Of a DNA stretch of 64,000 nt, positions 31,965-52,891 are shown piece after piece. The number at the start of each line of letters is the position of its first letter. Position 1 is the first letter of the stretch. The stretch is from an uncultured Pseudomonadota bacterium. Lineage in GTDB: Bacteria; Desulfobacterota; Binatia; Binatales; Binataceae. The DNA lies in NCBI GenBank assembly GCA_963837035.1, contig CAWIMH010000035.1, forward strand, positions 341,770 through 405,769, read 5' to 3'. A model generated the notes under the pieces. It was given only the letters and a program-made list of their open reading frames with translations. It did not search any database and was not told where the DNA came from. Made by a program: the position numbers and the translations under genes.

Positions 31965-32272
31965 TCACGCTCGACGCCATTGTTGCGGGCGCCGATTTGA
32001 CCTCGCTCTCGCGGGACGAGGCCATAGCGCTTCTGCACGCGCTCGCAGCGGCACAAGCACGCGTCGCTGGAGTGCTGGCGGAGTCAACGGGTAAGGGCGC
32101 GGTCGAAGATTGTTCGCTCGGTATCGACGAAGCTGCGCACGTCCTCGGCGAAAGCCGGGATTGGCTCTACAGGCGGACCAAGAGATTGCCTTTCCTGGTC
32201 CGCCTCGACGGGCATCTGCGGTTCAGCGCAGCCGGCATCCAAAAGTTCATCGCAGCACGGACGGGGCGATGA
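31961..32272 (+). CDS. excisionase-family helix-turn-helix DNA-binding protein
   Basis: The C-terminal IDEAAHVLGESRDWLYRRTKRLPFLVRLDGHLRFSAAGIQKFI matches the excisionase-family DNA-binding domain. A GTG start overlaps the AlpA stop, so the start is uncertain. Confidence 0.4.
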   Translation: MITLDAIVAGADLTSLSRDEAIALLHALAAAQARVAGVLAESTGKGAVEDCSLGIDEAAHVLGESRDWLYRRTKRLPFLVRLDGHLRFSAAGIQKFIAARTGR

Positions 32273-32276
32273 CAGA

Positions 32277-33604
32277 GTGGTGAGACTACGGCCCGTGCCG
32301 CGCAAACGGACGATCGCTGCGGCGAAGGGCACTCTTCCACAGATGGTCGATCGCGCCGAGCTCGTCCTTGCCGAGGAATACGAACGTTGGCGCATATTTC
32401 AGTCCAACGATCTGCTGTTTCGCGTGACCACCCTCACCAAAGACGAAGTCGAAGGAGATACGTGGATTCGCCGCCAGCCTGGCTCGGTGGTCGTGTGGCC
32501 ACTAACGCCCGTCATGCTCGACGACGTCCTGTCGCAGGCTATCAATCTGGATCGACAAGAAGATTCGCGACATTGATGTTCCTTCTACGCGTATCGGAGA
32601 TCTTGCTCTCGCGCGCAGGCCTATGGCCGCATCTGCCGCACTTGCGCGGGGTCATCACAGCGCCAACCATGCGACCCAACGGGACCATTTTTTCGACCCC
32701 GGGTTTCGACGACAAACGGGGTTGTTCTTGGTCGATACTGGAACTGCCTGGCTACCGTTACCCGAGCCCTCGCACGAAGCAGCAAAAATCGCGCTCGCGA
32801 CGCTCTACAAGCCGTTCGCCGAATTCCGTTCACGAATCTGGCCGGCGCTAGCGTGCCGATCAGCGCCATTTTAACCGGATTGCAGCGCCGGCAGCTGCCG
32901 ACCGCGCCGGCGCACGCGTTCGACGGTTCTACACAAGGGGCTGGGAAGTCACTACAGGCAAAAGTCATTGGGATAGTCCTTACCGGAACTGAGCCGCCAT
33001 CAATGACCACAGGAAAAGATGACGTGGAGTTTCAAAAGAAACTGACCGCCACGCTCATAGAGGGCGATCCCGTCCCATTTTTTGACAACGTGACCCGTCG
33101 TATCGATTCGGATGCCTTAGCAACAGTGCTCACACAAGAAACTCACCGCGACCGAATTCTTGGGCTCAGCAAACGAGCCACGGTGTCCACGAATGCACTG
33201 TTTCTGTTCAGCGGGAACGATCTCGAACTGTCAGGGGACAATCCGTCGCGCTTCATCGTGTCCCGTATCGAGCCTGCGTGCGAGCGGCCCGAGGAGCGCG
33301 ACAGCTTCATCCAGATCTCATTCAATATGCACACGACCATCGCGCCGAATTGGTGCGCTCAGCACTGACTATCTTGCGGAGCTACCACCATGCGGGACAG
33401 CCCTCGCAAGGTGTGAAGCCGTTTGGCCGCTTCGAAGAATGGTCCAAGCAAATTCGTGAAGCGTTAATCTGGGCCGGCGCGCCCGATCCCGTTTTGACCC
33501 GCGAAGATGTCATCGAAGTCGACTCGAAGCGGGAGAATGCCGCATTGAACCTGTTTCGTGCCTGGAACCGAGCGGTAGTCGGTCCGATAAAGCTAGGGAA
33601 CTGA
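32277..33604 (+). pseudogene. phage/plasmid primase-helicase (P4-type, Walker A GxxGAGKS) with several frameshifts
   Basis: Fragments in ORFs 32277-32576, 32387-32851, 32623-32874, 32853-33368 and 33278-33604 reconstruct a primase C-terminal/D5-like NTPase. A Walker A motif FDGSTQGAGKS is present. Confidence 0.45.
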
Positions 33605-33960
33605 TCAAGGCCAGCAGTCAATTCCGGCCTGAAGGAAGCTTTGCTTGAGGTGGCTCCCGAGAAGAACGATCCAGACCGCGTTAGTTCGTACCGCCTCGGT
33701 GCCTGGGCTCGAACGCACCGCGGAAAAGTATTGGATAACTACAAATTAGAGCGCAAGAAGGACGAACACGCCGGATTCGCGACCTGGCAGGTAATCAGAA
33801 TCGCAACTGTCACAAAGGAAGGATGAAATGACCGAAGAACTCGAGCAAATCGAACACACTCACGATGTAGGTATCTCGTACAACCCTGAGAGCCGCAAAA
33901 TCAAGGGGATCACAGGGCGCGGAAGAGGCCGTCGACGACACGCTAAGAGCGATCGCGCCG

Positions 33961-34980
33961 ATGCGCGCCGAGCTGATAGCGGCGTTGCGCATCCGGCAAG
34001 GCCTCGGGGCATCTGAGACGGTGACGAAAGAAGTAAGCGCGACCTCAGTGCCGCCTTTGGCGGTTCAGCGCGAAAATTACAAGCGCTGGTACACGGCCAG
34101 AGCACCTACTATCACCAACACCGAACAGCTGGATTTGATGCTCGCACAGGCCCTCGAAGAGGGCGACGAAATCATCCCAGATTTTGCGCATTCCTTCGGC
34201 GTCAAAAAGCCAATGGGACTCTCATCGCCGTCGATCGCAAGGGCCGGGTCATCCCACCAGCGGGTTGAGAAACAGAAGGCCGCCTCGCGCGCCAACGCCA
34301 GCGGCCCGGAAAACAAAGGAGTGGTGATGGACACGCAGACGCTAGTCTCAGACCCGGGAATGTCAAACCGCCGCCGATCCGGCCGTGCCGGGGCCCCTCG
34401 CGCACCAGGTTGGGTGTGGCGCTACCTGGAAATGGACTTCTCAATCCCGCGGTCGGAATGGTCCCGCTGCCTATGTGATTTGACCTGTCCCCGCTGCGGC
34501 CTGCCGTTCGGCAACGCACTCGCGCGCGAATCGGTGCGCGTTCCCCACTCGACGGATTCTCCCTGCCGCTTCCCTTATGCTGGTTGCGGTCTATGCGCGC
34601 TCTGCGCTCTCGACGATCAATTTTCGAAAAACACTGCGCTGATCATCGGCAAGATCGTGCGGGTCGGCCTTCCTTGTGCACACGTCTGGGCGAAAATGGC
34701 GATAGCGACCTACGGGCGCGAGATGTTCGCGGTCCGCGATGACGATCGATACGGAGGAGCCCGCGATTTCTGCGTCTTCCTCAACTACCCATTGCTAGTC
34801 AGCTACGCGACCGACTTCTTGTGGTGCAACCCGTTGCTGATCGGGCTCATCCGGACGGGTCGCGCGACCGTCCGATTGGTAGCCGAAACGCTTCTTTCCA
34901 TCACTCGCCCGATCGTGGACCAGCAGCTCGAGCGCCATGAGTGGCGTGAGAACCGGCGGCGCCGGAGGATCGCTGCGTGA
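33961..34980 (+). CDS. hypothetical Cys-rich protein (island cargo)
   Basis: 339-aa ORF with CxxC pairs (CPRCG, CGLCALC). No family was recognised. Confidence 0.3.
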   Translation: MRAELIAALRIRQGLGASETVTKEVSATSVPPLAVQRENYKRWYTARAPTITNTEQLDLMLAQALEEGDEIIPDFAHSFGVKKPMGLSSPSIARAGSSHQRVEKQKAASRANASGPENKGVVMDTQTLVSDPGMSNRRRSGRAGAPRAPGWVWRYLEMDFSIPRSEWSRCLCDLTCPRCGLPFGNALARESVRVPHSTDSPCRFPYAGCGLCALCALDDQFSKNTALIIGKIVRVGLPCAHVWAKMAIATYGREMFAVRDDDRYGGARDFCVFLNYPLLVSYATDFLWCNPLLIGLIRTGRATVRLVAETLLSITRPIVDQQLERHEWRENRRRRRIAA

Positions 34981-35327
34981 GCCACAGCCGCGCCCGCACC
35001 ATCCGCCGCCTGGCCGCTCGCGAGGCAGCCAAAGCAAAGCAGGTCCGTCAATCGCCGCAGGCGCCGGCGACGCTGTGGCCGGGGAAAATCATAGTGGTCG
35101 CTGTCGGACTATCGTTGACGGTCGCCGCCGGAATCGGCATCCAGGGAGCCGCGGCCGAACCGCTGAAGCCGCATCGGACCTGTGCCATCCGTGTAGGCCC
35201 GTACTGCTGCCCGGGCTGCGACAGAATCATCGCCTCGACACCAGGGGGTACAGAGTTTCGCGAAGAAATCGAAGACGGCGACGGACAGGTCCTGGCGACG
35301 GCTATCAATGCGCTGCCAACAGACTGA
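34977..35327 (+). CDS. small membrane protein, unknown function
   Basis: 116 aa with one TM helix (IIVVAVGLSLTVAAGIGI) and a CCPGC motif. The start overlaps the previous stop (ATGA). Confidence 0.3.
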   Translation: MSHSRARTIRRLAAREAAKAKQVRQSPQAPATLWPGKIIVVAVGLSLTVAAGIGIQGAAAEPLKPHRTCAIRVGPYCCPGCDRIIASTPGGTEFREEIEDGDGQVLATAINALPTD

Positions 35328-35393
35328 CATGGCACGCCTAAAGCAGAAAAAGTATCGAAACGTGATCGAAATCGATTAGAAAATCCGCCGAAA

Positions 35394-37579
35394 TTGACCC
35401 CCGCAGCATCGGCCGCGATCGAGCGGTTCGAGGCGATGGCTGAAAAGCTGCGCCAGGCGGTAGAGAGGTTTTTGAGCAAGTCGACGGGTTGCCGTTTGCG
35501 GTCGCGGATCGGGCGGTCGTCGACCGAAGCTTTCGTCGAATCGCGACCGTCGAAGAAGGCTCGGTGGGCAGACTGGCGCGCGGCCTCGCCGCCTTGCAAA
35601 AGCTCAGAGACGACCTGGTCGCTGCAGATTCAGAGGCTGGAGCAGAGGCGTGGCTGAAATTTTCCTGCTCTCAATTCTGCTCAAGGTCAAGGACACCGCG
35701 CAGGCGGTCAGCGAGATCAATCGCGTCCAGCATGCCGTCGTTTCCATGGAGCGCAAGGCAACCGAGACGTCCGCTTCGTCGCTCGCACTCAGGGGTGCCA
35801 TTTATGCTGGCGCCGCTGGAACCATCGCGGCTTCATTGTATGGATTGGTCGAGCCGGCCATTGAGGCGCAAGCATCCCTGGCGCACGTAGCCACCGCTAT
35901 GAACGATGGTGCTCAACAAGCTCAACACCTCGCGGAAGTCCAGAAGTTCACCGAAGAAACCAGCGCCAAAAGCGTCGTCACCGAAGAAGAACTGGCCTCG
36001 GCCTACTACATCGCGCGAAGCAACAACATCGCCCACGCCGCGGCGCTGCAGGCAGTTCAAGCCGCTACGAATCTGGTCACGGGAACGACGAAGGACGCGG
36101 CCGCGGCACAAGCGGCGCTCGAGCCGACGACGCGAACGCTGACGGTACTTTATTCGAACTTTGGCGGCAGTATCTCGGTCTACGCGGATCAGCTCGCGAA
36201 ACTGCAAAGTGCATATTCCTTTCGCGACATCGGCGAGGTCACCAATGCGCTCTCGTATGCCGCGCCAGTCGCGAAAAATGCCGGGATGCGGTGTCGCAGA
36301 TGGCCACCGCCTTGGCGCTGATTAGTCAGTCGGGAAAATATTGGCCGAGGCAGGAACGAGTTTCGAGGAGTTCGTCACAAAATTAGGTTCCGACCGAAAG
36401 CTGCAAGGCTTCATCGCGCGGACCGCCCAGGGCGGCATCGATCTGCAGCAGACGTTGCTGCGCCTGCGCGCGACGTTCGGGGATATACCCAAAGCCGAGC
36501 TCGGCCTGCGGCTCGGGCAGTTTGGATTCAGCGAGCGCAGCGCGGGCGGCATCGCGGAATTAATGGACAAGATGAACGAGTGGCAGAGCATCCAGAAGGA
36601 CCTGCAGAACTCGTCAGGTGAAGCGGCGCGGCTCGCCGCGCTGCGGATGAGCGCGACCGACGAGCAACTGACCGTACTAAATAACAACTTCAGGAATCTG
36701 CGCGAGTCTCTAGGCGCGGCGCTACTGCCGGCGATACAGGCGATCATCCCGCAGTTCGTGTCCCTGATTCAGCGTGCAACAGAATTTGCCAAGGCTCACC
36801 AGGGGCTGGCGCGCGTCGCTCTCACAATCGCGGCCATCGCGGCCGGCGCGCTTGCCCTGGGCGCGGTGTTGTCGTTTGCGGCCGCCGGCTTCGTGGGACT
36901 CGGGGGTGCCATAAGTGGGCTGTTCTCCGCAATCATGTTCATCTCCCGACTCGGTTTGGTCACACAAGCCTGGGCCGCCGCGCAGTGGCTGGTGAACGCC
37001 GCGATGGCGGCAAATCCAGTTGGCGCGGTGATTGTCGGTATCGCCGCACTGATCGCCATCGGCTACGCGGTGTACGAACATTTCGGCGCGCTCAAGGAAT
37101 TCTTCAAAAGCTGGGGCCCCGCGATCGCCGGCTTTATCGTCGCCCCGTTCGCGATGATCCCGCTCGAGATCATCAAGCATCTCGGCCAGATCAAGGACGC
37201 GGCCAAAAATATAGCGCATGGCATCGCAAGCTATTTCGTGGGCCACAGCCCCATACCCGAAGGTCCCTTGCACGAAATGGACCTCGCCCGCGAGATCTCG
37301 CGTTCGATGGCGCCCAGCCAGATAGTGGCAGCTGCTCGCCGCGCGGCCGCCGCAGTAGCGCTCTCGATGCCACTGCTAATGTCGCCTGGCGCAGCGGTGG
37401 CGTCGGCCACGCCGGCGAGCACCGGGGCACCGGTCGTGAATATCCATCAGGAATTTCATTTGTCTGGCGGGACCCCGGCCGACAAGAAGGCGTTACAGAA
37501 GGCGATCGAAGAGTCAGGCCACGAACTCGTGCGCACAATCAACCGAGAACTCGCCAAGCGCGAGCGGAGGAGCTTCTAG
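35394..37579 (+). pseudogene. phage tail tape measure protein with frameshifts
   Basis: A long Ala/Gln-rich helical protein with an internal hydrophobic block (ALTIAAIAAGALALGAVLSFAAAGFVGLGGAISGLFSAIMFI). It is split across ORFs 35394-35657, 35489-35890, 35650-36321 and 36341-37579. Confidence 0.5.
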
Positions 37580-37582
37580 CAA

Positions 37583-37951
37583 ATGAGTCTTTTTTCTCTC
37601 GATATAGAACGAGCGCCCGACTGGCATTTCATCGGCGCCGAGATCGTCGCCCCGACCGCTGGCCAGGTGATGGTAACCTCCCCAGGTTTGATCATGGCCT
37701 CGTCGATCGGAATCTTGGCCGCCGCGCGCCTGGCGGGAGACGACAGCGTACCCACCTTCGAGCTCGTCCATCGCGATGCCGCTAACAGCGTCGATATCGA
37801 TACCACATACGCTGATGCTGCTACGGCCGCCGCCGGCAGTTGGATGAGGATCTTCCTCATCAAATCGAAGGACCTGATCGTATTGCGCGCGAAGACCGCG
37901 GGGACGGTATTGAAAATTTATCAGGCCGAACTTTTTCTTTGGAGAATCTGA
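37583..37951 (+). CDS. hypothetical phage-region protein
   Basis: 122-aa ORF directly after the tape measure gene. It is possibly a distal tail component (position-based guess). Confidence 0.3.
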   Translation: MSLFSLDIERAPDWHFIGAEIVAPTAGQVMVTSPGLIMASSIGILAAARLAGDDSVPTFELVHRDAANSVDIDTTYADAATAAAGSWMRIFLIKSKDLIVLRAKTAGTVLKIYQAELFLWRI

Positions 37952-38578
37952 TGGACCTTACTCAATTCACGGACATCCTCGACGCCGCGGAACTCGATCC
38001 GCGGCCGCGCTGGACGCAAACCGTCCAAGCCATCCTCGACCGGGAATTTGCCCACGTCCCAGCCGATCTCGCGACGGCGTTCGCCCAATCGCGCCTGGCT
38101 GCCCGCCTCACGCCTTCGCACCGCCCTCGAGCAAGGCCGTATCGCGGATGGCGAGAAATACCTGGGCGACTTCGCGCTCGATCTGCGTCGGCTCGTCCAG
38201 GCTGAGCGCCAGCCCCCGTATGGACGATTGGTCCCGGTCTCGGCTGAGAGCCAACTTGAGAAGTTCAAAGAAGTGCTCTACCGCCATGCCTGGCGTGGGC
38301 CCGACCTCTCTGAGTTGCGCTCGATGATTCCTGACAACACCAAGATCGCCGGCATCACGTTCTGGGCGATCACGCTCGAGGGCGGCCGCACGATCACGCG
38401 CGACCAGGTCCGCCAAAACTCAAAGCCAATCTCGTGGTCGAACAAGCAGGGCTCATGGGAAAGTCAGTTCGTCAGCGACGCCACAATCCGCGAGCTTGAA
38501 ACCGCCGCCACGAGAGTTCCGACCCCTGTCGGAAGCGATTCCAGAAATTTGGACTACCCCAACGGCGTCAGGCCGTAA
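37951..38578 (+). pseudogene. hypothetical phage-region protein, one frameshift
   Basis: ORFs 37840/37951 and 38048-38578 join across a frame change near 38100. Confidence 0.3.
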
Positions 38579-38589
38579 GGACAATTCAC

Positions 38590-39056
38590 ATGCTGAACGA
38601 GGAAGAAAAGGATTCCGCCAACTTGACCGCAGAACAAAAAAGATCTGCACACAGATGCAGGTCAGCGAAAAAGAACTCGCCGCGGCTCGAGCCCGGCGGA
38701 CGGCCAATGGGTACAAGCCGTCCCGGGACCTCTACGAAAACTACAGGAAGACCGCGAGCAGCGCTGCGCACCAACAGGAAGTCAGCGTGCGCGACGAAGA
38801 CGCCGGCGACGGCGACGTCGAGCACAGCTATGGCGACGATTTTTCGAATCCGGATACCGAAGCGTGCTACGAATCCATTGGTAAGGCGATGGATGCCGAG
38901 GATTCCGAGCGCCGGGATTACCATTTGAGAGCGGCCAGGGCCTCTCTCGATCGTCACTTTTCGCGACTCCCGGGTGCCTACACGGAGGTCGGATCGACGT
39001 TCCTTAAGCTGCCATACAGCGGTCGCTCAATTGCGATTTTGAGCTTTCGCCGATGA
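38590..39056 (+). pseudogene. hypothetical acidic phage-region protein, frameshifted
   Basis: MLNEEEKDS... (ORF 38590) continues in the frame of ORF 38496-39056. Confidence 0.25.
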
Positions 39057-39423
39057 AGACCTTCGCCGGGACGCAGCGCATCTTGTCCGTGCGTCCCTTC
39101 CGGCCGGGTCGAGGCTTCCATGCTGCCAAAACCCGGTTTGCGTCCGGCAAGAAGCTCCCAGCCCAAGCCACGAAGAGCCAGGCGAAGGCTGGGAGCAACC
39201 AACTCTGAAGTGACCGCCGAAGAAGAAATCGTGCTTCTCGAAACCATCGCTATCGCGCTCGCGGCCAATGAGATCGGCTTCGACCTGGTCCTCTTCATCA
39301 TCGGCCAGGTGCGCAACCGTATTTGTTCATTGTGCGGGGAGGACCGGGCTCGCTCACCTCGGACCCGCACTACGCCACGAACAGAGGCACGACTTCATCG
39401 ATCTCAATCTGTCGAGGAATTGA

Positions 39424-39807
39424 ATGCTACCGACCACCACAAAACCGGCAAACCGCAAGCAGTATAAGCGCGATATGCAGGTGCGCGCGGCCATCCGCCG
39501 GCTACGCAGCCTCGCCGGTCATCTCGAGGATCGCCGCTACCTACCCTTGCTCAGATCTTTTTGCGAGATCAGCCTCTTGATCGAGAAGTCCTATTCGCAC
39601 TTGCGCGACGAGTCCCTGATCAGCGCCGAGACCGGCGAAATTCGGGGCAGCGTCGACGTGTTGAGAAGGCTCATGGACACCCAACGCGGCCTGGCCCGCG
39701 AGCTCGGCCTTTCCCCGACCATATCGGCGAACCTGTTCCCGAAGCTGACCAAGCCCACCATCGACCTGGAAGCGGTCCGTGCCGAGTACAACGACACGCA
39801 GGAATAA
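39424..39807 (+). CDS. phage terminase small subunit (P27-family-like)
   Basis: 127 aa lying immediately upstream of, and overlapping, the terminase large subunit. LRRLMDTQRGLARELGLSPTISANL resembles P27-family TerS. Confidence 0.5.
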   Translation: MLPTTTKPANRKQYKRDMQVRAAIRRLRSLAGHLEDRRYLPLLRSFCEISLLIEKSYSHLRDESLISAETGEIRGSVDVLRRLMDTQRGLARELGLSPTISANLFPKLTKPTIDLEAVRAEYNDTQE

Positions 39808-41305
39808 CGCGCTCGTCGCTTTCGCCGAGAACGCGCTCGGCGTCAACCTGAACCACCATCAGCGGCGGATGCTCGAGGCCATCATGCGAGCGAGACGCAC
39901 CGCCATCGCGTCCTGCCATGCCACGGGGAAGAGCTTCGTCCTGGCATGTGCCGCCCTCGGCTTTGCCGCCCTTCATCGCGATAGCCGGGTCCTCATCGTC
40001 ACCCCCGGGTGGTTAATGAATCGTGCGGTGATCTGGACCGAGATTCACTCGCTGCTCGCGCGCGCGAAGCACCGCTTGCCCATCGTTTCGTCGACGCAAA
40101 CGGAAATCCGGTTGGGTCCGAAGAATCTCGTCATCGGATTATCGGCGGCGGACGCCGGCCGACTGCAGGGTCATCACAGCGAACATCTTTTGCTGATCGT
40201 CGACGAAACCGCAGCGCTCGACCCGACCTTCTGGCCCGCGATCGAAGGCGTGCTCGCCTCGGGCAATTCCCGCTTGCTCATAGCCGGCAACCCGACCACG
40301 ACCACGGGCGTCTTTTACGATGCCTTCGCCCGCAACCGATCCGCGTGGGAATGCCTGCAAACCGGCGCGTTCGATACCGAAAATTTGGAAGGCGTCACGC
40401 TCGAGCAGTTGCTCGCGATGACCGAGGACGGCTCGACACGAACCCGCGGCCGTACCTGGTGACGCGCCGGTGGGTCCGCGAGCGCTATGCGGAATGGTTC
40501 AACGGGTCACCCGAGAATTCGCCGCTGTGGCAGTCCCGGGTGCTCGGCCAGTTTCCGACGTCGTCGAGCAACGCCCTGGTACCGCTATCGGCTCTCGAGC
40601 ATGCTCGGCGGCCGGCCGAGGACCACGCCGAGCGTATCGTCATCGGCGTCGATCCGGCCGGACCTGGCCGGGACCTCACCGCCTGTGTAGCCATCGCCGG
40701 CGGCGCCATCGTCGAGATAGCGACGTTTTCCGATGCGGATGCACGTGGGCCGGTGGTCGCCTTCATCAACCGCCACCGCGACCGCCTGCGCCTCGTCCAG
40801 GTCGATTCTGGGGGCATCGGCTGGTACTTGGCCGAACACTTGCGGACCCTCGGCATCGGGACCCAGGGACTCAATGCTGCGAGTTCGGCCACGGACAAGG
40901 AGCGCTATACCAACTTGAAGGCCGAGCGATATTTCGCCCTAAGGCAACGCTTCCAGCAAGGCGAAATCTCGGGGCTCGACGACTCGACCCTCGGCGAACT
41001 CGCGAGCATTTCCTACCTCGTTGACCCGCACGGAAAGATCCAGATTCGAAGACAAAGCTTCCGTTCGATCCGCGCTCGGTCATAGTCCTGACAGGTCCGA
41101 GGCCCTCATGCTGGCTGCCGGCGAGTCCTACGAGCCCATCGCGTACCGCGCAGCGCCGGACTTTCGACCGAGCATCTCCGGATGGTCATCGTCACCTCGA
41201 GGCCGCGACCTCTCGCCGTCGGCGATCGAAGCCGGCCAGCCCAAGGTACGGCAACTTGGCGACCTCGCGCGATTCAAAAGCCGGCGAGACTGGCGAGGGT
41301 TCTGA
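39779..41305 (+). pseudogene. phage terminase large subunit (ATPase plus nuclease) with at least 2 frameshifts
   Basis: It has Walker A CHATGKS and Walker B LLIVDETA. The nuclease domain shows IGVDPAGPGRDLTAC. The C-terminal SPDRSEALMLA motif is in a third frame (ORF 41021-41305). Frame changes are near 40440 and 41030. Confidence 0.65.
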
Positions 41306-41306
41306 T

Positions 41307-41546
41307 ATGGCCTGGTCCTTCTCCGAAACCGACAACGACTTGCCCTTTGCCCAGTGCCCTGACTGTGGGCGCCGCTTTCCCTGTTCCGTGGCTAACTGCA
41401 GATATGACGACGCGACAACTTGCGTGATCGAAACCCTCGAGAACGGCAACCGCCGCGTGCTTTTGCCGTCCCAAATCACCCAACACCGACGCGACGAACT
41501 GAGCGCTCAAGCAGCCGCGGCACGGCGCCGGCGAGGGCCGGCATGA
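41307..41546 (+). CDS. small Cys4 zinc-ribbon-like protein
   Basis: MAWSFSETDNDLPFAQCPDCGRRFPCSVANCRYDD... contains CPDC and CSVANC. Confidence 0.3.
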   Translation: MAWSFSETDNDLPFAQCPDCGRRFPCSVANCRYDDATTCVIETLENGNRRVLLPSQITQHRRDELSAQAAAARRRRGPA

Positions 41547-41791
41547 AGCTGTCCTGCGACATATACGAATACGAACACGGCGCCGGCGCCCCCGTCGGCC
41601 TGCTCGCGTGCGAAACGTGCGGGCGCCTGCAAAACAATGATTGTTTTTTGGTCGAATGTCGTCGCAGGTGGGTCCGGGTCCGCTCAGCGCGGCATTGGCG
41701 CACGATCATCAAGCTGGCCGACCTCGGGCTCGCTCGACGCGAGAAAAGCGCTACGCCGCCTTCGACCGCGACTTCGACGCGATCCGGCTGA
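41543..41791 (+). CDS. hypothetical small Cys-containing protein
   Basis: MKLSCDIYEYEHGAGAPVGLLACETCGRLQNNDC... The start overlaps the previous stop. Confidence 0.25.
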   Translation: MKLSCDIYEYEHGAGAPVGLLACETCGRLQNNDCFLVECRRRWVRVRSARHWRTIIKLADLGLARREKSATPPSTATSTRSG

Positions 41792-42193
41792 GGACCTTGT
41801 CGGGCCGCTGCTCCGTCCGCGCCAGGCGCAGCCCACGCCGTACGACCGGGAACTGCTCCATCACCCGACCGAGGTCGATCAAGTGCGAGACCAACTCGTC
41901 GCTGGGTGTCGTAATTCGCCGCACCCCAGGGCCGCTTGCCCAAGGTCCGTAAGATCGGGTTGACGATTCAGCAGCTCTTCTTTTTCAGCACCTTCTCACT
42001 GTCCATTTCGTTCCTCCCTGTTGATAACTTTCCCCGGCAATTCGGGGCGTGCCATAACGCGAACCACCCGATGGCGTCAAACACATCTCACGCGTTCTCA
42101 CGCATACACAGTGACAGCCATAGCACCATGGCTATAGACTATCAACACGAACAGCCATGGTGGCACGCCTCGCGTGGGTATAATGGTCAGGCA

Positions 42194-42370
42194 ATGGATA
42201 CGAGAGAGGCGGGCCGGAAGGGCGCCCGTAAGCGTTGGGCCAAGGCCACCCAGGCCGAGAAGTCAGCGAGCGCGGCCCGCGCCGGCCGCGCCTACTGGGC
42301 CCGGCTCAGCCCCGAGCAGCGCAGCGCCGAGATGAAGCGCAGGGCACGGAAGCGAAAAAAGAAGAGGTGA
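42194..42370 (+). CDS. small highly basic protein (KGG/stress-induced-like), unknown function
   Basis: MDTREAGRKGARKRWAKATQAEKSASAARAGRAYWARLSPEQRSAEMKRRARKRKKKR. The start is the internal Met of ORF 41936-42370. Confidence 0.3.
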   Translation: MDTREAGRKGARKRWAKATQAEKSASAARAGRAYWARLSPEQRSAEMKRRARKRKKKR

Positions 42371-43524
42371 GAACCATCATGGATACACAGTTCGATTTCG
42401 CGACGTTTACCGGATCGCTTAAGGACATCTATCACCTGCCGATATCATCCTCGCGATTCGCCGCAAAAAGGCTGAGGCGCTGAGTATTGCCGATGGTCGT
42501 TCAAACCATCGTGGACGAAGAGACAAAGCGGCAGTGCTTAAAGCGCAGATTTCAAATCTTCAATTCTGGATCGAAACGCATACCCGCCCTTCAAGTATGA
42601 GCGACGCCGACACCCGCCTTTGCGTGCCAATAATCGAAAAGTTCTATCCGGAAACATCGCTCGCAGATTGACGGACGCTCAGTCGGCGTGTAGCCTAACG
42701 ATCACGCGGTTCCCGACGAAACAATACAAAACCACACCTTACGCAACAACGTCAGCGGACAATCTGCAAGGTGTTTCTTTGGCGGATTCGGCGGCTATGC
42801 CAAAATCGCCAAAATCAGCGTACCGCGCACCCAAGGCCCCTCCAACCAGAGGGGCCTTTTTTTGGTCAGCGGGCGATGGTCGCCGAGTCGGTAAGGGAAC
42901 GACGGTCCCGGCTGCGGATGCGGGAACAGCGCGCCGAGGCGGCGAACTCGCGATGGCACAAGCCGAAATGCGAACAGGACAACGTGTCCCGCCCGCATAA
43001 GACCGAAACTAGCCGGGCCGAGGTGGCCCGCGAAACCGACCTGCCCGAGCGCAAGCTGCGCTACGCGGCCCGAAGTCAGGATCGTCGGCCCCCGGCTCAG
43101 GGATATCCGACCAGCTTCTGAGCCACAACTGGGGTGAGCACACCGTGTGCGTTACTGGCCGCCTTCAAGAGCTTCCGCACAAGCTGATCGCTGTCATACG
43201 CGACCAGGGCCTCGACGTTCTGGTTCAGCACATTCTTGTCGATCGGGCTCAGACGCTTGTAGTCGCCCCCTTCGCGAGCAGCGTGACGATTGTCAGCACT
43301 ATGTCTTCAAGGGCTTGGTCCATCGTTCGCGCCTCACTTCTTTGGTGATTGTGGTGACTCTGGTGACCCTGTTTCACCCACGGCCCAAATATACGCAAAA
43401 ACACACCCCGAAAATCGCCTACCGCACAAAACCTGTACAATTCACCCGATCCGGCCGCTTTCGCCCACTCACCCGTCCTTACCCCGTAACGCTGTAACCT
43501 ATTGATTCTATTGGCTTATATGTA

Positions 43525-43611
43525 TGGTGCCGAGGGGCGGGACTTGAACCCGCATGTGGTTTCCCACGGTGGATTTTGAGTCCACTGCGTCTGCCGTTTC
43601 GCCACCTCGGC
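43525..43611 (-). tRNA. tRNA-Leu (anticodon CAA), class II with a long variable arm; CCA encoded
   Basis: On the minus strand the gene reads gccgaggtggcgaaacggcagacgcagtggaCTCAAAAtccaccgtgggaaaccacatgcgggttcaagtcccgcccctcggcacca. The anticodon loop is ctCAAaa and the T-loop is TTCAAGT. The G-run at 43533-43536 has one more G than canonical T-stem/acceptor geometry allows. Confidence 0.8.
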
Positions 43612-43708: not shown

Positions 43709-44652
43709 TTGACCAGAGCGAGTAGTCTGGCGATTATTCTGACCGTTGCCGGTGCGATGGGTTTTGCAGGCGCTCTGATCGCAAAGCACTGGCTTCCACA
43801 CCGGGACCACGGGCCGTCTACTATATCGGCTTCGCCGCGCAGCTCAGCCGCGCCGCCATCGTCGATCGCCACTTCCTCTGCTGCCCCTTTCGAAGTCGGC
43901 GTCAATTATAGACTGGTCGTTGCGGCCAACAGGGCACGCGAATTCCTAGTCTATGTTCCTTCAAGTCTCAATCGCCACGTAACGGCTCCACTGGTTATCA
44001 TGCTCCATGGGCAGGGAATGTCGAACGGTGAGGTGATCGGCCGACCCGCTGGGACCGGCTGGCCGATGTCAACGGATTCATCGCCGCCTTCCCGCAAGGC
44101 TACAAGGGGAACTGGGATGACGGACATTTCTCGCGCAGCGAAGTGGACGTCGAATTCATCGGCGCCATGATCGACGCCATCTCCAAAGCGGCCCAGATCG
44201 ACCCTCGAAGAATTTTTGTAACCGGTTATTCGATGGGCGCGTCGATGGCCTACCGTCTCGGAGCCGAACTTTCGGACAGAATTGCCGCCATCGCACCCGA
44301 TTCCGGGCAGCTATGGCTGCCCCCTCAGCATCTCAAGAAGCCGGTTTCGCTGATGTACATGATCGGGACTGCTGACTACGTAAACCCAATTGGGGGAGGC
44401 AATGGACGCCCCCCGGCAGAGAAAACCTTGAGTTTGTGGCGTACGATGCTGCGATGCCCCGGCGCTAGCCGTGCGGTGGAGGCATTTGCGGGACCCGGAG
44501 TTAAGGCAATAGCCTGGGCCCCGTGCGACGGAGACACCGCCGTTGCCCTGTACCAGATCGACAGGCTAGGTCACTATTGGGCCGATGCCATCGGATGGTT
44601 TCGACGCCACCGCGGCGATCTGGTGGTTCTTTTCGCATCATCCAAAAGCTGA
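43709..44652 (+). pseudogene. secreted PHB-depolymerase-type esterase (LpqC-like alpha/beta hydrolase), one frameshift
   Basis: It has an N-terminal TM/signal segment, LVIMLHGQG and GYSMGASMA (GxSxG). The frame changes near 44040, between GEVIGR and the DVNGFIAAFPQGYKGNWDDGHF segment. Confidence 0.55.
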
Positions 44653-45680: not shown

Positions 45681-46196
45681 ATGAAACTAAGGATGGGTCG
45701 CGCTGTCAGTTTGCTTTCGGTGAGCCTCTCTGGGGCTCTTCTTTTGTCGGTGGCCAGCACTCCGAAAGCTTTCGCTCAATCCCAAGAGGTCTACGCGTGC
45801 ATAGGACGTTATGGGCATGTGACGATGGTGTCCAAGCCCAAATGCCCTTCAAAGAAGGCGGTCCTCTACAGCTTCGCCGGTGTCGGCGGGCCCGGCCAGG
45901 TCGGACCGATGGGTCCCGCGGGGCCTCAAGGTCCAGCTGGACCAGGGTTCTTGATAGCGAACGCTGGAATTGCGTCGAAACGGGCGAAACCGCGGAGGGA
46001 CTTTCCGCGGTGTTTGCGTGGCCTCTTAGAGGGAATAAGAGAGGCCAAGAATGAGCCTTCACCACGCAGGTTCTATTTAGACGGCACCGGCGAACGCTCA
46101 GCGTTCGTCGCGACCGCTGCCCGTTCTCATTATCCGCGCGACTCCAGAGGAGTGCAGCCGGCCAGACGTTGGCTCTCTCGCACGAGATGCGGCTGA
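45681..46196 (+). CDS. secreted protein with a short collagen-like Gly-Pro-X tract, probably truncated or degraded after residue 100
   Basis: It has a signal peptide and GGPGQVGPMGPAGPQGPAGPG. The downstream sequence looks non-coding and overlaps an AraC fragment on the opposite strand. Confidence 0.3.
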   Translation: MKLRMGRAVSLLSVSLSGALLLSVASTPKAFAQSQEVYACIGRYGHVTMVSKPKCPSKKAVLYSFAGVGGPGQVGPMGPAGPQGPAGPGFLIANAGIASKRAKPRRDFPRCLRGLLEGIREAKNEPSPRRFYLDGTGERSAFVATAARSHYPRDSRGVQPARRWLSRTRCG

Positions 46197-46351
46197 TCCG
46201 AAAACCCCGCTTCTGCCGCAAGGATTGCAGTAGACGCTGGCGATAAGCGTACCAGGCGGAGGAAGCGCTGACAGCGTAGGATGCGATCCAGCGTTTTCGG
46301 ACCGTACCCGAAGCTCTCATCGAAACGCCGCCGGAGAGTTCTCTCGCTCAT
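46130..46351 (-). pseudogene. AraC/XylS-family HTH domain fragment (5'-truncated)
   Basis: SERTLRRRFDESFGYGPKTLDRILRCQRFLRLVRLSPASTAILAAEAGFSDQPHLVRESQRLAGCTP is the second HTH of the AraC C-terminal domain. An in-frame stop lies 20 codons upstream, and no ligand-binding domain is present. Confidence 0.55.
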
Positions 46352-46465: not shown

Positions 46466-47610
46466 TCATTTCAGGCCGGCCTTGCGCAGGTCCTTATCAA
46501 TCCGCTCGTTAAACGCTGGGTCCTTGTAATATCCCTTCTCTGGTGGTCGTAAGGCAAACTGCGGATTGATTCGCATGGCCTCGGCGGCTTCAGCTCGGGC
46601 CTCCCGGTCGTGCCCCGACTCCTCGTCGGCAAAAGCCAGGTTTGTGTGGCCGAATAAATTGTTCGGGTATTCTGCTATATATCGCTTTAGAGCAGACGCC
46701 GCGTCCTGATAGCGTCCCATTCCTTCGTAGGTGATTCCAAGCCACAGTGCATAGAAGCTCGGGTGGGCCGGGTCGAGGCGCGCGGCCTCTTGGACAGCGC
46801 GAAGCGCCTCTTCATGCCTTCCAGAGAGGTTCAGCGCTTCCGACAGAACCACATAGCCTTCAGCGTAACTGGGGTTGATCGCAACTGCGCGCTGCGCGTC
46901 GGCTACCGCCTGGTCAAATCGTCGCTGCGCCCAATCATTGTGCGCAAGGAGAGCATGGGCATCGCTGTTGGAGTCATCCAGGGCAAGCGCCTTCTGCGCC
47001 AGTTGGTAGGAGCGTTCAAAGTCCGCCTGAGGATTGTCACTCCATTGGTTTAGCGCCGCATTGCTATAGGTCCACGCTACCAAGGCGTAAGCCTGGGCAA
47101 ATTTCGGATCCAGTTCGATGGCTTTCTCGGCCCATTGCCGCGCTTCCGCGTTATCCTCCTTCGTTATGCCCTGGCGCCACAGGGCCTCAACGGCTCGGAG
47201 GATATCGTCATAGGCCTCGACGTTGTCGGTTGGGCGCGAAGCCGTCCAATGGGGCATATTCAAATCGTGCAGTCTGAAAATCTCACCGAGCGTCGCGACT
47301 ACGCCATGGACGATTTCGTCTTGCAGAGCAAAGATGTCGGTAAGCGGACGGTCGTAGCTGTGCGTCCACATTTCCCTTCCGGTACCTGCATCGACCAACT
47401 CAATGTAGATGCGGACCCGGTCGGCGGACTTTTGCACACTACCCTCCAACACATACCTAATGCCTAGTTCCTTAGCGACTTCCTGCTCCTTAATAGCCTT
47501 GCCCTTGTAGGCAAAGCTGGAGTTGCGAGCGATAACAAAGAGACCGGGAAGCCGGGAGAGGTCGCTGATAAGCTGGTCCGCAATGCCGTCAGCGAAATAC
47601 TCCTGCTGTT
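46466..47610 (-). pseudogene. adenylate/guanylate cyclase-TPR protein, C-terminal part (disrupted by IS21 insertion)
   Basis: Reading upstream of the annotated Met gives ...QQEYFADGIADQLISDLSRLPGLFVIARNSSFAYKGKAIKEQEVAKELGIRYVLEGSVQK, followed by TPR repeats. This is the conserved region downstream of the TM segment in class III cyclase-TPR proteins. Confidence 0.65.
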
Positions 47611-47767
47611 TGCAACGCTTTAAAACTGAGCCACTTTACCGGCGTAAAAGTGAGCCACCCTGGGTTGGTTCTTTCCTCAGTCCCTTTTTGAGATTTTAAC
47701 CGTCTGGTCCTTTCCTCCGTGCGCGTTAGGTGTGGCGCGCCAGCGCGTACCTTGCGCGCAAGCGATA

Positions 47768-48565
47768 CTAATGCGCTTCACTATCGTCGGCATGTGTATC
47801 CTTCTTGGCGCCGCCGGCGGCTCTGATTGCTCGCTGGCTGCGAAAGGAATCGCCGCGAGTTGTCAGGATATGGGCGTGATGGCTGAGGCGATCGAGCAAC
47901 GCCGTTGTGAGCTTTTCATCGCCGAACACCTTGACCCACTCCGAGAACGCCAGATTGGTGGTGATGATGGTCGAGCGGCGTTCGTAGCGCTGGGCAAGCA
48001 GATTGAAGAGCAGCTCGCCGCCGGTGCGCTCGAAAGGCACGAACCCCAGTTCATCCACGATTAACAGCGCGACTTTCTGATACCGCTGTTGCAAGGCGGT
48101 CAGCCGCCGCTCGTCGCGCGCCTCAACCAGACTCTGCACCAGATCCGCTGCGCGGGCGAAGTGAACTCGCAGCCGCCGGCGCGTGGCTTCCACTCCGAGC
48201 GCGATCGCGAGATGAGTCTTGCCGGTGCCGATCGGACCGGCCAGGATTGCGTCCTCGGCGCGTCCGATGAACTCGCCGCTCGCCAGCTCCATGAGCTTTG
48301 GCCGTGACACGCCCTTGAGCACCGCCCAGTCGAGCTGGTCGAAGGTCTTGATATCGGGAAAGCGCGCTTCGCGCAGCAGGCGGCGCGCGGTGCTTTGATG
48401 CCGATTGGTGATCTCGGCTTCTAGCAGCTCGCGCAGCAGGTCTTCGTAAGCCCAGCCACCGTCGCGGGCGCGCCGGCAGAGCCCCGGATAATCCCGCACC
48501 ACCGCCGCGAGCTTGAGTTCGTGGCAGTACTCCTGGATGACCGCCTCGCAGGCCGCGTTACTCAT
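47768..48565 (-). CDS. istB: IS21-family helper ATPase IstB
   Basis: Walker A GPIGTGKTHLA, Walker B LLIVDELG, and the IstB C-terminal motifs are present. The start at MSNAAC overlaps the istA end. Confidence 0.8.
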   Translation of the reverse strand: MSNAACEAVIQEYCHELKLAAVVRDYPGLCRRARDGGWAYEDLLRELLEAEITNRHQSTARRLLREARFPDIKTFDQLDWAVLKGVSRPKLMELASGEFIGRAEDAILAGPIGTGKTHLAIALGVEATRRRLRVHFARAADLVQSLVEARDERRLTALQQRYQKVALLIVDELGFVPFERTGGELLFNLLAQRYERRSTIITTNLAFSEWVKVFGDEKLTTALLDRLSHHAHILTTRGDSFRSQRAIRAAGGAKKDTHADDSEAH

Positions 48566-50038
48566 GGACGGCTCCTTCGGCGAGCAGCAGATGATCGTAA
48601 TCAGACGCGCGTCCGGCTTCGACCACGTAGGCGGCGAGCGCATCGGGAACCGCGACGTTCTCGAGCTTCGGTCCGGGAACGGGGAGATCGAGCACGTCGA
48701 TACGGTGCTGGTTGATCGCCGCTTCCAGCGCCAGGCGCACCCGATCTTCGCCGTGTTCGCAGACCACGCCGAGCAGCCGCGCCACCACTCGCGCTGCTTC
48801 CAATTCGCCGTGCGTGCCGCACAACAGTCTCCACAGTCCGCTCCACGGTGCGCCCAACTCCGCGATCAACTCCGGCGCCACTTGGCGCACCGCGTGCGGC
48901 TTGCGCGCCAGCTCGGGAAGATAATGACGATAGCGGACCTGGCGCGTTCCAAACCGCGCTCGCGGATGCGTCACGCTCTCGCCCATGCAGGTGATGCGGA
49001 CGTCGTCCACGCCGAGGTACGCGGTCGCATCAAGCCGCGCCCAGCGCGACGGCACCGAGTACCAGGCCCGTTCGATCCTGACCATCGCGCGCGAGCTGAT
49101 CTCGACCGGGATTGGCTTGCGCACCTCGAAGCTCGTAGCGGGTGCCGGCAGCAGTTGCACACGTTCCTCCGCCCACAGCTCACTGGCGGACCTTCCAGCA
49201 CGGTGCCGCGCGGGGAACGCGGCGTCGAGTTCGGCGAGCAGCTGGCGCGAGATTGCTTCCAGGCTGTCGCCGCGCGGAATCGGAGTGAGATGCTCAGCCG
49301 GATCGCCTTACCGCGGCTTTCCACTCCGCCCTTGTCGTGCCCTTCGCCGATGCGGGCGAAGTCCGGCTCGAACAGATAGTGGCTGACCAGCGCCAGGAAC
49401 CGGCCCGTGAGTTCGCGCCGCGCACCGACAATCTTGCGCACTGCGGCCGCGAGATTATCGTATACGCAGCGCCGCGCGACTCCGCCCAGGTGGGCAAACG
49501 CCCGCACGTGGCCGTCGAGAAAGGCGAGCTGATCGCAGCGATCGTAGAGCCAGGCGAACTCGCGGCCCGAGTACATCAGCCGCAACAGGAACTCCCAGGC
49601 TTTGCGCCGTTCGCCGCCGACTTCCACCACCACCTCGAAGAAATCGATCTGCGCTTCGCCCGGGCGATTAACCAGTGGCACGTAGACCTCGGCTCGTTGC
49701 CGCCGCCGCTCGCGCCAATAGTCACCCACCAATGTCCTGCCGACCTGATAGCCTTCCGCCTTGAGCTGACGATAAAGCCGCATCGCGGTAATCCGTTGCT
49801 TGCCGGTGGTCCGCGGCTCCCACTCCGCCACCAGCTCCTCCAGCCGCGGCTGCACCGCCTCCCATACCGGCCGCTCCCGCTGTCGCCGCGAACTTCTGAC
49901 CGGCTCGGGCTGATCGAGGTACTTGGCTACCGTGTTGCGGCTTAAGCCGAGTTCACGCGCCACGCGCCGGATGCTCCGTCCCTCGTTCAGCACCTTGTGT
50001 CGCAGTACATGCACTTGATCCATCTTCAGCATCCCCAT
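48558..50038 (-). pseudogene. istA: IS21-family transposase IstA, one frameshift (homopolymer cc to c near 49300)
   Basis: The N-terminal HTH and DDE region are in ORF 48971-50038 (HDKGGVES...). The C-terminal region is in ORF 48558-49160. Inserting one C restores ...RLSHLTPIPRGDSLEAISRQLLAELD.... Confidence 0.7.
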
Positions 50039-50123
50039 CCTCCGGCTTCCAGCCGGAGTCTACGGCTCGGGGTGGCTCACTTTTACAGCGGTAAATGGAT
50101 CAGTTCTTTAGCGGCATATCCAC

Positions 50124-50877
50124 CTGTTGTGGGTCGCTGCTCAGGTTGGCAAAGGGCAACACGGCGATGGAAGGCTTATCGGGCAATGGCAGGGTTGTCC
50201 TGCGGCTGAATGGACGCATGAGTATGCGGTGGCTTGAGCGAGAGATTTTGAACTAACAGGATTGTCCCAATGATGATCGCGATTCCGGTCAACGACAGAA
50301 CGCCACCACGCCAATACCGGCGTGGAATTTCGAGCGTCTCTCGGCGCGCGGGCGTAATCCCTACTGGCGACACCCGAAACACACGCACCGCTTCGGCAAT
50401 ATTCTTAACGTGTTGCTCGCCGAGATCTTCGAAGTTGAGTTGCAGTTTATTCCTTATGTTTTCATGAACAGTCCGGGAGATGCAGATACCGCCTGGCTCC
50501 GCTAAGCTCTCCAGCCTCGCGGCGACGTTTACGCCCTCCCCATAAATCTGCTCGTCCTCGAACATCACGTCGCCGAGGTTGACGCCGATGCGGAAATGCA
50601 TGCAGCGATGCGGCGGAAGTTTCGCATTCTCAACCTTTAGCGCGGTCTGAACCTCGACGGCACAATTCACCGCCTCGACCACGCTGGCGAACTCAGCGAG
50701 GACGCTGTCGCCAGCAGAGTTTACGAAACGCCCATGGTGCTGTTCGATACTCGAATCGATCAACTTGCGATAGGACCTAAGCGTGCGCAGAGTTGCCTCT
50801 TCGTCGTCCCCCATGAGGCGGCTATAGCCGAACACGTCGGCGCAGAGTATGGCGGCGAGCTTGCGTTCCACACCCAC
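50124..50877 (-). pseudogene. adenylate/guanylate cyclase-TPR protein, N-terminal class III cyclase domain plus TM helix (upstream part of the IS21-disrupted gene)
   Basis: The cyclase catalytic domain shows ILCADVFGYSRLMGDDEEATLRTLR...FRIGVNLGDV...GEGVNVAARLE, followed by a TM helix. Beyond the stop, a frame shifted by one reads DKPSIAVLPFANLSSDPQQ. This is the conserved motif that continues as QEYFADG on the other side of the IS. Confidence 0.65.
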
Positions 50878-51229: not shown

Positions 51230-52891
51230 ATGGGCACGAGCGGGAAGCCGAACAAAGCGGTGAAGCTCTATCGTTTCACTTTCGAAGTCCTCCTCGGGTT
51301 GGCGTCTATCTGTATAGTCGCGCTGGCGGCGGCACCAATCGCCTCCGCGGACCACCCGCCGATTGCTGTCACTGAAAGCGGACTCGTAATTGGCACCACG
51401 GCGAATGGCATAAACGAGTTTCTCGGCATCCCATACGCCGCGCCCCCGATGGGACCTCTGCGCTGGATGCCACCGAAGCCTTATGGGCTGTTTCACGGAT
51501 TTGTCCTCCAGGCGACTCAATTCGGTAGTGAGTGCACGCAACCTGGACCGTTTGGCAGCGAAAACTGCTTGTTCCTGAACGTCTATAGACCGCAGCCGCA
51601 GTTTGGCGGCGGCCCGCCGCGGAGTCTGCCGGTGATGGTCTGGATTCATGGCGGCAGCCTTACGAGTGGAGGCGGTGACTTTTATGATCCGACGCCACTG
51701 GTACAAAAAGGAGTGATCGTCGTCACCATCAATTACCGCCTGGGATATCTTGGCTTCTTCGCCCAATCGGCGCTTGACGCTGAGGGCCATCTCGCCGGTA
51801 ACTACGGGTTGATGGATCAGCAATTCGCGCTCCGTTGGGTTCAGAAAAATATCGTGGGCTTTGGCGGCGATCCGAATCGAGTAACGGTATTCGGTCAATC
51901 CGCAGGCGGATATAGCATCTATGCCCAGCTCGCTTCTCCCACCGCGTCGCATCTGTTTCGCGGTGCGATAGTGGAGAGCGGATCGTTTGATCAATTTCAG
52001 GACTACTTTGATTTCATTGTTCCGCTGGCAACGGGCGAATCCACCGGTACCGCATTCGTACCAGCGGGGGACAGCGTAGCTGCAGGCTTCGGATGTTCAG
52101 GCAGTCCCGGGGAAACCTCCAAGTGTCTGCGCGATTTGTCCGCGCCGGCGCTGGTAGCGATACAAGCCGGCATTCTGTATCCGTTCGTGGATGGAACACT
52201 GCTCACTCAGACACCCGGCGAGGCGTTTGCCAGCGGTCAATTCAACCGCGTGCCGGTGATCCACGGCACCAATCATGACGAATGGCGTCTGTAGGTGGCT
52301 GGAGAATACGATTTTGGGGTCGGACCGCTGACTGACGACGAATATCCGGCTGCGGTGTCAGCACTGTTTTTCGGGCAACCCGAGAGCTTCATACAATCGT
52401 TGATCAATACCGAATATCCGTTGAGCGACTACCCGCCGCCTCCGGGTGTCGTGAGCGCGCCACTGGCCCTAGGCGCACTCGGCACGGACGTCATTTTCGC
52501 GTGTACCGCGCGCAATGCAGATCTGTTGTTGTCGCAGTACGTGCCGACCTATGCGTATGAATTCAATGATGAAAATGCGCCGCCGGCGCAGTCCTCTGTG
52601 CCAGGGTTAACGTTTCCGCTTGGCGCGTATCACACGGCTGAATTTCCATACCTTTTCAATTTTCCCTTAGATGTTTTATCTCCAGCGCAAATCGAGCTCT
52701 CGGATACGATGATCGGATATTGGACACAGTTCGCGAAAACCGGGAATCCTAACTCGGCGGGTGCGACTAGGTGGTCCAAGTACAATGCGGGGGGCTCGCT
52801 CGAATCGCTAGTGCCCCCGACGCCAATGCCGGAGTCGGATGCGAGTTTTGACAAGGATCACAAGTGTTCGGGCTTCTGGAACACGTTCTAA
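51230..52891 (+). pseudogene. carboxylesterase type B (para-nitrobenzyl-esterase-like) interrupted by an in-frame TAG at 52292-52294
   Basis: It has a signal peptide, an oxyanion-hole HGGS motif, and the active-site motif GQSAGG. The two ORFs 51230-52294 and 52295-52891 are in the same frame and separated only by TAG (...NHDEWRL*VAGEYDFGV...). Confidence 0.65.

Follow-up and report, generated by a model that had tools for sequence, protein, structure and literature searches.

The 64-kb window of contig CAWIMH010000035.1, from an uncultured soil bacterium (the window is the whole stretch of DNA analyzed, to which all positions given here refer), has on its minus strand a gene that encodes a class III cyclase with TolB-like and TPR parts and is split by an insertion sequence (IS). 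We consider it very likely that this 2516-bp element of the IS21 family transposed into the cyclase-TolB-TPR gene, and that the locus is now a decaying pseudogene. Both halves of the gene, the ends of the element, the target duplication and the restored reading frame could be traced at nucleotide level.

Anatomy of the interrupted cyclase gene

The 5' part of the gene is a minus-strand open reading frame (ORF) of 233 amino acids (aa) at positions 50877-50176. It encodes a Guanylate_cyc domain (PF00211, E=2.8e-12, 47 bits vs. a gathering cut-off of 21.9, residues 9-159) and, near its end, the hydrophobic stretch GGVLSLTGIAIIIGTILLV, a transmembrane (TM) helix; in the alignment, this part corresponds to the first 230 residues of intact homologues. 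The second GTG is probably the true start, with a protein that begins VERKL. The frame adjacent to the cyclase ORF reads ...LPLPDKPSIAVLPFANLSSDPQQ as far as the IS; frame comparison and homologue alignment identified positions 50183-50128 (minus strand) as the remaining 5' part of the gene in the shifted frame, (L)PLPDKPSIAVLPFANLSSDP(Q), where the TolB-like periplasmic domain starts. Beyond the IS, the minus-strand frame reads ...QEYFADGIADQLISDL... and continues for 380 codons, with Pfam matches to TPR repeats, until a stop at 46466. This 3' part (46466-47601, minus strand) completes the TolB-like domain (EYFADGIADQLISDL...), includes the TPR repeats and aligned with residues ~255-625 of the intact homologues. 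The initial annotation had described the cyclase ORF ending in a TM helix and the cyclase and TPR halves on either side of the IS, and both descriptions agreed with the sequence and the Pfam matches.

Removal of the IS, together with frame repair, yielded an ORF of 631 codons without an internal stop. The repaired protein aligned end to end with 12 intact homologues that measure 615-630 aa, at 64-70% identity and 100% coverage, and shares domain order and length with these ~625-aa proteins of Candidatus Binataceae and related metagenome-assembled genomes (MAGs); unlike theirs, the window gene has a frameshift and is divided in two by the IS. Since the repaired protein aligned over its full length and the junction fitted without a gap, we take the two halves as one gene. 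Before the insertion, its product of ~630 aa is predicted to have had a class III nucleotidyl cyclase domain in the cytoplasm, followed by one TM helix, a TolB-like domain on the periplasmic side, and TPR repeats.

At the junction, excision of the IS and one copy of the target duplication restored GAC CCA CAA CAG GAG TAT TTC, i.e., DPQQEYF within DPQQEYFADG. This belongs to the conserved PSIAVLPFxNLSxDPxQEYFxDG motif found directly after the TM helix in the cyclase-TolB-TPR family. No intact relative with a different domain junction was found among the 12 homologues, all of which share the junction without a gap. These proteins were regarded as paralogues rather than orthologues because the family is very large and paralogues often lie on one contig. 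The corrected junction predicts an empty site in which ...GACCCACAACAGG is joined directly to AGTATTTCGC..., and the 23-mer that covers it, GACCCACAACAGGAGTATTTCGC, was found uninterrupted in one public metagenome contig. This contig (L004) carries a TolB-like gene in which the junction encodes ...IAVLPLANLSGDPQQEYFADG..., reading DPQQEYFADG. The exact-pattern scan of metagenome contigs yielded no empty-site allele, as its sole match, L004, is only distantly related (a paralogue with 77% identity over 49 nt).

Ends, genes and family of the IS21-type element

The IS occupies positions 47607-50122 on the minus strand and reads 5'-TGGATATGCCGC...GTTGCAAACA-3' in the istA-to-istB orientation. Its limits were drawn by blastn comparison with eight other copies and are in line with a contrast in guanine-cytosine (GC) content, which is 0.65-0.69 within the IS vs. 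~0.57 over the rest of the window. The eight full-length copies (L001, L003, L008, L010, L011, L015, L017 and L028), retrieved from contigs of IstA relatives and by a genome scan, are 86.6-95.5% identical to the window copy. The MAGs in which they reside bear the labels Candidatus Binataceae or 'uncultured delta proteobacterium MFD...'. The homology of all eight stopped at identical bases, 5'-TGGA(T/G)ATGCCGC ... GTTGCAAACA-3', which correspond to 47607 and 50122, and the ends TGGATATG.../...GCAAACA are conserved in 9/9 copies.

Each end starts with TG and carries two 12-nt copies of A(A/G)AA(C/G)TGA(G/T)CCA. Repeat comparison delimited a terminal inverted repeat of ~53 bp at the istA end (50070-50122, minus strand), with internal repeats AGAACTGATCCA and AAAAGTGAGCCA 23 nt apart, and one of ~54 bp at the istB end (47607-47660, plus strand), with internal repeats AAAACTGAGCCA and AAAAGTGAGCCA 24 nt apart. 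A 17-mer from the inverted repeat occurred exactly twice in the window, inverted and at both IS ends, where 0.11 occurrences were expected by chance. The inverted repeats previously put at about 40 bp are thus real, but they extend further and contain two internal repeats each.

IS21-family elements generate target duplications of 4-8 bp according to ISfinder descriptions. With the ends fixed by the eight copies, the duplication in the window is 5 bp long, CCTGT at the istA end (50123-50127) and CCTGC at the istB end (47602-47606; both on the plus strand), with one mismatch, a substitution. The same 4/5 match was observed in L001 (CCTGG/CCTGT), and the 5-bp duplication is perfect in seven of the nine copies (CCCCG, GGACT, AAGAA, GGGTC, GCCCC, GCTTG and TGCTG). 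A 4-bp duplication with a GTGG... terminus, as suggested by the first three copies, was discarded because the nine copies favor 5 bp and a TGG terminus.

The element encodes istA (48558-50032, minus strand) and istB (47768-48565, minus strand), which overlaps the istA stop within ATGAGTAA. In the window, istA is split over two frames by a 1-nt deletion; HTH models match, and PF22483 falls on the C-terminal part. The gene, located by NF033546 and by alignment to the intact 491-aa relative P0121, codes for a transposase with an HTH, a DDE core and a Mu-transposase C-terminal-type domain. After frame repair, IstA scored 218.7 bits with NF033546 ('IS21 family transposase', cut-off 160), compared with 221.1 bits for P0121, to which it was 93% identical in a protein search where intact relatives measured ~491 aa. 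The AAA+ helper ATPase gene istB is intact and its 265-aa product matched PF01695 (E=1.7e-72) and NF038214 ('IS21-like element helper ATPase IstB', 271.6 bits, cut-off 200). The nearest solved structure to the window IstA was that of IS5376 IstA (PDB 8B4H/8Q4D), with E between about 4e-22 and 1e-24. A phmmer alignment to 8Q4D placed QIDFF, VYDNL and GGVES of the window protein on D124, D187 and E233, the catalytic triad of IS5376 IstA (PMC10122671).

The organization of the element is that of the IS21 family, with its prototypes IS21 and IS5376: istA (HTH and DDE) and istB (AAA+) are consecutive and overlap at ATGA, and the element is ~2.5 kb long, with 5'-TG...CA-3' inverted repeats and two repeated IstA-type sites per end. 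In the prototypes, the inverted repeats consist of two repeats each (L1/L2 and R1/R2) with a terminal 3' CA and, as in IS5376, are flanked by 5-bp direct repeats (PMC10122671); the window element shares the 5-bp target duplication with IS5376. The window IstA is distant from characterized members of the family: the match to IS5376 IstA covers only the N-terminal 300 residues, and in the subgroup to which the window IS belongs only HTH models and PF22483 match, Pfam rve being without significance. A tblastn search for a named relative among plasmids returned no ISfinder name except the distant ISAlsp1, and the plasmid-borne IstA relatives in PLSDB were at most 40% identical to the window IstA. 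Relatives with at least 80% aa identity occur mainly in soil MAGs of Binataceae or 'uncultured delta proteobacterium', and a few in MAGs of Acidobacteriota and Hyphomicrobiales. On every family feature that could be tested, the element is assigned to the known IS21 family as an unnamed member. Hence, the initial reading of an IS21-family element inside a class III cyclase-TPR gene, with a junction that can be rebuilt codon by codon, held up: both proteins score above the NCBIfam IS21 cut-offs, the termini are shared with eight copies and have an IS21-type architecture, and the repaired host protein is full-length.

The insertion would have followed the ordinary IS21 route of DDE cut-and-paste and strand transfer, in which IstA tetramers synapse the ends and act at the terminal CA-3' and IstB delivers the target; end synapsis, target supply and staggered cuts have been reviewed (PMC10122671 and PMC11208146). 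Staggered 5-bp cuts would have left the duplication at codons Q-Q-E of DPQQEYFADG, where the periplasmic TolB-like domain begins. The catalytic and membrane portion, which retains its own start, would thereby have been parted from the presumed periplasmic sensor portion, left promoterless. Three further small lesions are present, namely the substitution in the duplication, the 1-nt deletion in istA and a frameshift in the host gene.

Small lesions, decay and alternative readings

In istA, one C is missing between 49296 and 49295, CGGCT-GAGC replacing the CGGCTCGAGC of relatives (comparison with L001 and L003), so that CTCGAG has become CT-GAG. The deletion falls 8 codons past the catalytic Glu, and the C-terminal half is lost. 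The frameshift had been noted before and is present in the sequence; it had been ascribed to a homopolymer, but the lost base belongs to CGGCT(C)GAGC. Since istA is frameshifted, the window copy is judged defective. It appears unable to make a full-length transposase, i.e., non-autonomous, and its mobility would need IstA in trans. An intact istA (~491 aa) is limited to L001 and L011 among the nine full-length copies, and the other seven are frameshifted, each at a different position; the L003 frameshift differs from that of the window.

Two side observations concern other copies of the element. L011 and L017 come from the same MAG (MFD05705.bin.2.88) and are 98.6% identical to each other. In L005 and L006, the homology ends at IS position 2078, within istB; L006 regains it after another ~2.1 kb, suggesting that a second element is nested in this copy of the IS.

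The frameshift in the host gene precedes the insertion by 57 nt. DKPSIAVLPF is encoded one frame away from the cyclase domain, and the switch must fall between QPQ and LPD. The frame change can be seen directly at 50184-50193 (minus strand), where the minus-sense sequence is CCTGCCATTG, and it creates the premature TAA that ends the cyclase ORF. At this site, the window has CCTG|CCATTGCCC, as against CCx GCx CTG CCx (C/T)Tx CCG in two homologous genes. Putting CTGCC back gave ...QDNPALPLPDKPS..., of the same length as in all homologues. The host frameshift is best explained by the loss of one CTGCC unit through 5-nt slippage; had the Ala codon been GCC, the site would have contained CTGCC-CTGCC in tandem. 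A 1-nt insertion would be a simpler mutation, but it shortens a gap-free conserved stretch by two residues. The initial annotation had correctly seen that the sequence continues 'one frame over', though not that this reflects a separate lesion in the host gene.

It had also called the event clean and recent-looking, a description that does not fit the mismatch in the duplication, the frameshifted istA, the independent host frameshift and the pseudogenes that flank the locus. The inactivation does not seem ancient either, because the repaired gene is otherwise without stops and resembles its paralogues. Taken together, the locus has the appearance of a pseudogene in early decay.

Several points weigh against this interpretation. 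The 662-kb source contig probably stems from a long-read MAG, and consensus errors might account for both indels and for the duplication mismatch. Further, the broken istA in 7/9 IS copies, all in MAGs, fits real decay and assembly error alike. Finally, neither a true orthologue nor an empty-site allele was found, the best homologue being 70% identical, and for this reason the pre-insertion sequence is a reconstruction and not an observed one.

We therefore weighed a reading in which the insertion is real and the istA deletion, the host-gene frameshift and perhaps the duplication mismatch are base-calling or consensus errors of a long-read assembly. The organism would then have an undamaged IS copy, and a very recent event, as initially proposed, would be conceivable. 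The length of the contig (662,208 bp) is typical of long-read MAGs, the MAGs that contain the close IS copies are named 'MFD...bin' and have contig names in the style of Flye, and seven broken istA genes among nine copies, each broken elsewhere, is a high fraction. However, neither the istA nor the host-gene indel lies within a homopolymer; the best match for the host lesion is a loss of 5 nt, which is untypical of consensus errors; the duplication mismatch and a TAG nonsense codon in a neighboring gene are substitutions; and long intact ORFs of 881, 688 and 571 aa lie nearby. Systematic error at methylated CTCGAG was rejected as the source of the istA deletion: the motif altered there shows no depletion over the window (30 occurrences vs. 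26.6 expected), which makes a motif-linked error unlikely. On balance, we regard consensus error as a rather unlikely origin of the lesions. To gauge the background frameshift rate, pairs of adjacent ORFs in other parts of the window were scanned with Pfam; most gave no match, and the scans were uninformative on that rate.

The initial annotation had spoken of inactivated cAMP/cGMP signaling. The gene is indeed disrupted, but a loss of function may be proposed only with caution, given that the ORF for the catalytic domain and TM helix is intact and that at least one intact paralogue (P0005, 626 aa, 69% identity) is encoded on the same contig. It is improbable, in our view, that the truncated 233-aa membrane-anchored cyclase, as left by the insertion and the nearby frameshift, is still expressed without its periplasmic TolB-like/TPR sensor and acts as a deregulated enzyme; if it were so, domain uncoupling by an IS would be one way in which cyclase-TolB-TPR paralogues are rewired and not simply killed.

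An assembly chimera, in which a multi-copy IS was collapsed or misplaced between unrelated contig ends, is very unlikely. IS elements commonly break or mis-join metagenome assemblies, and many contigs that carry the IS are only ~2.5-3 kb long. Yet the flanks belong to a single gene, whose halves they represent in matching orientation and frame; they agree at 4/5 positions of the expected 5-bp duplication (chance ~0.016), and they join into a full-length, homologue-like ORF, which is not expected of a random mis-join.

The arrangement first proposed for this locus, with the IS at 47611-50123, a CTGTT duplication and the junction ...DPQQQEYFADG, deserves hardly any credence after comparison with the eight other copies, which refuted both its boundaries and its duplication. 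CTGTT is present at 47606-47610 and at 50124-50128, and excision based on it also preserves the frame. However, eight of eight other copies end in ...GTTGCAAACA, hence TGTT (47607-47610) belongs to the IS, and with ends at 47607 and 50122 both inverted repeats align with TG at their tips. The repeat is therefore a coincidence: one copy is C47606 plus the initial four bases of the IS, the other consists of flank bases 50124-50128, and the earlier boundaries were off by 4 nt and 1 nt. As a consequence of these boundaries and of the wrong duplication, the earlier reconstruction contained one Q too many: DPQQQEYF is one residue longer than all 12 aligned homologues, which show a one-residue gap at the extra Q in an otherwise gap-free motif. 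A short repeat at presumed IS junctions can thus be coincidental, and it is the comparison of multiple copies that fixes the ends.

That two naturally separate genes, one for the cyclase and TM helix and one for TolB-TPR, flank an IS in their spacer can be set aside almost entirely: the cyclase ORF does have its own stop codon (50176-50178) upstream of the IS, but this stop is reached only after the frame change, the conserved LPLPDKPSIAVLPFANLSSDPQQ runs in the other frame straight to the IS end with EYFADG resuming beyond, and all close homologues are single proteins of ~625 aa.

Genomic surroundings and the cyclase-TolB-TPR family

The insertion into the cyclase-TolB-TPR gene is located in a region where decayed and mobile DNA is abundant. 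The divergent neighbor of the cyclase gene, a carboxylesterase gene (PF00135, 51230-52891, plus strand), has an in-frame TAG at 52292-52294 (...HDEWRL*VAGEY...), and its two halves match consecutive parts of the PF00135 profile. On the other side, an AraC-type regulator (46130-46351, minus strand) is reduced to its C-terminal HTH_18 (73 aa), and an alpha/beta-hydrolase-like gene (43709-44652, plus strand) is split over the overlapping frames 43709-44170 and 44143-44652. A degraded prophage (32000-43611) lies 4 kb from the locus and adjoins a tRNA-Leu(CAA) at 43525-43611 (minus strand). Its phage-gene fragments extend from ~32 to 43.5 kb and include a primase/polymerase fragment (32577-33368), a weak terminase-large fragment (39985-41085) and a tape-measure gene split between different frames (35650-36321 and 36341-37579, matching phrog_28 positions 238-419 and 440-769). 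The prophage has a GC content of 0.61-0.64, compared with a background of 0.57.

The family of the interrupted gene is very large, with at least 8000 matches at E<=1e-20, and paralogues often share a contig. Homologues are annotated at JGI as 'adenylate cyclase' or 'TolB-like protein/class 3 adenylate cyclase/TadD'. Two 627-aa paralogues 1.6 kb apart, with a DUF1329 gene between them, were observed on the 7.9-kb contig L085 (JGI Ga0679444_0023520), and the homologues P0012 and P0018 share an 81-kb contig. From this distribution, the family appears to expand locally.

In an alignment inspected by eye, the window cyclase shows candidates for canonical metal-binding, transition-state and substrate-specifying residues, namely Asp in both CADVFGYS and AGDSVLAEF, together with an Asn and an Arg within GVNVAARLE. 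The substrate-specifying residue before xxGD is normally a Lys in class III adenylate cyclases. At this place, 13/13 aligned family members have Asn instead (NSAGD; residues 53-57, positions 50700-50720 in the window), which suggests that the nucleotide specificity of the family may not be of the canonical ATP type.

Nothing at the locus departs from known biology, and the host-gene family has already been annotated. The analysis supplies the exact ends, the duplication length and the end-repeat structure for an unnamed IS21 lineage that is multi-copy in Binataceae-type soil MAGs. These data could help IS annotation and the curation of MAGs, with small significance beyond annotation. For the very large family of cyclase-TolB-TPR paralogues, the locus records one birth-and-death event.

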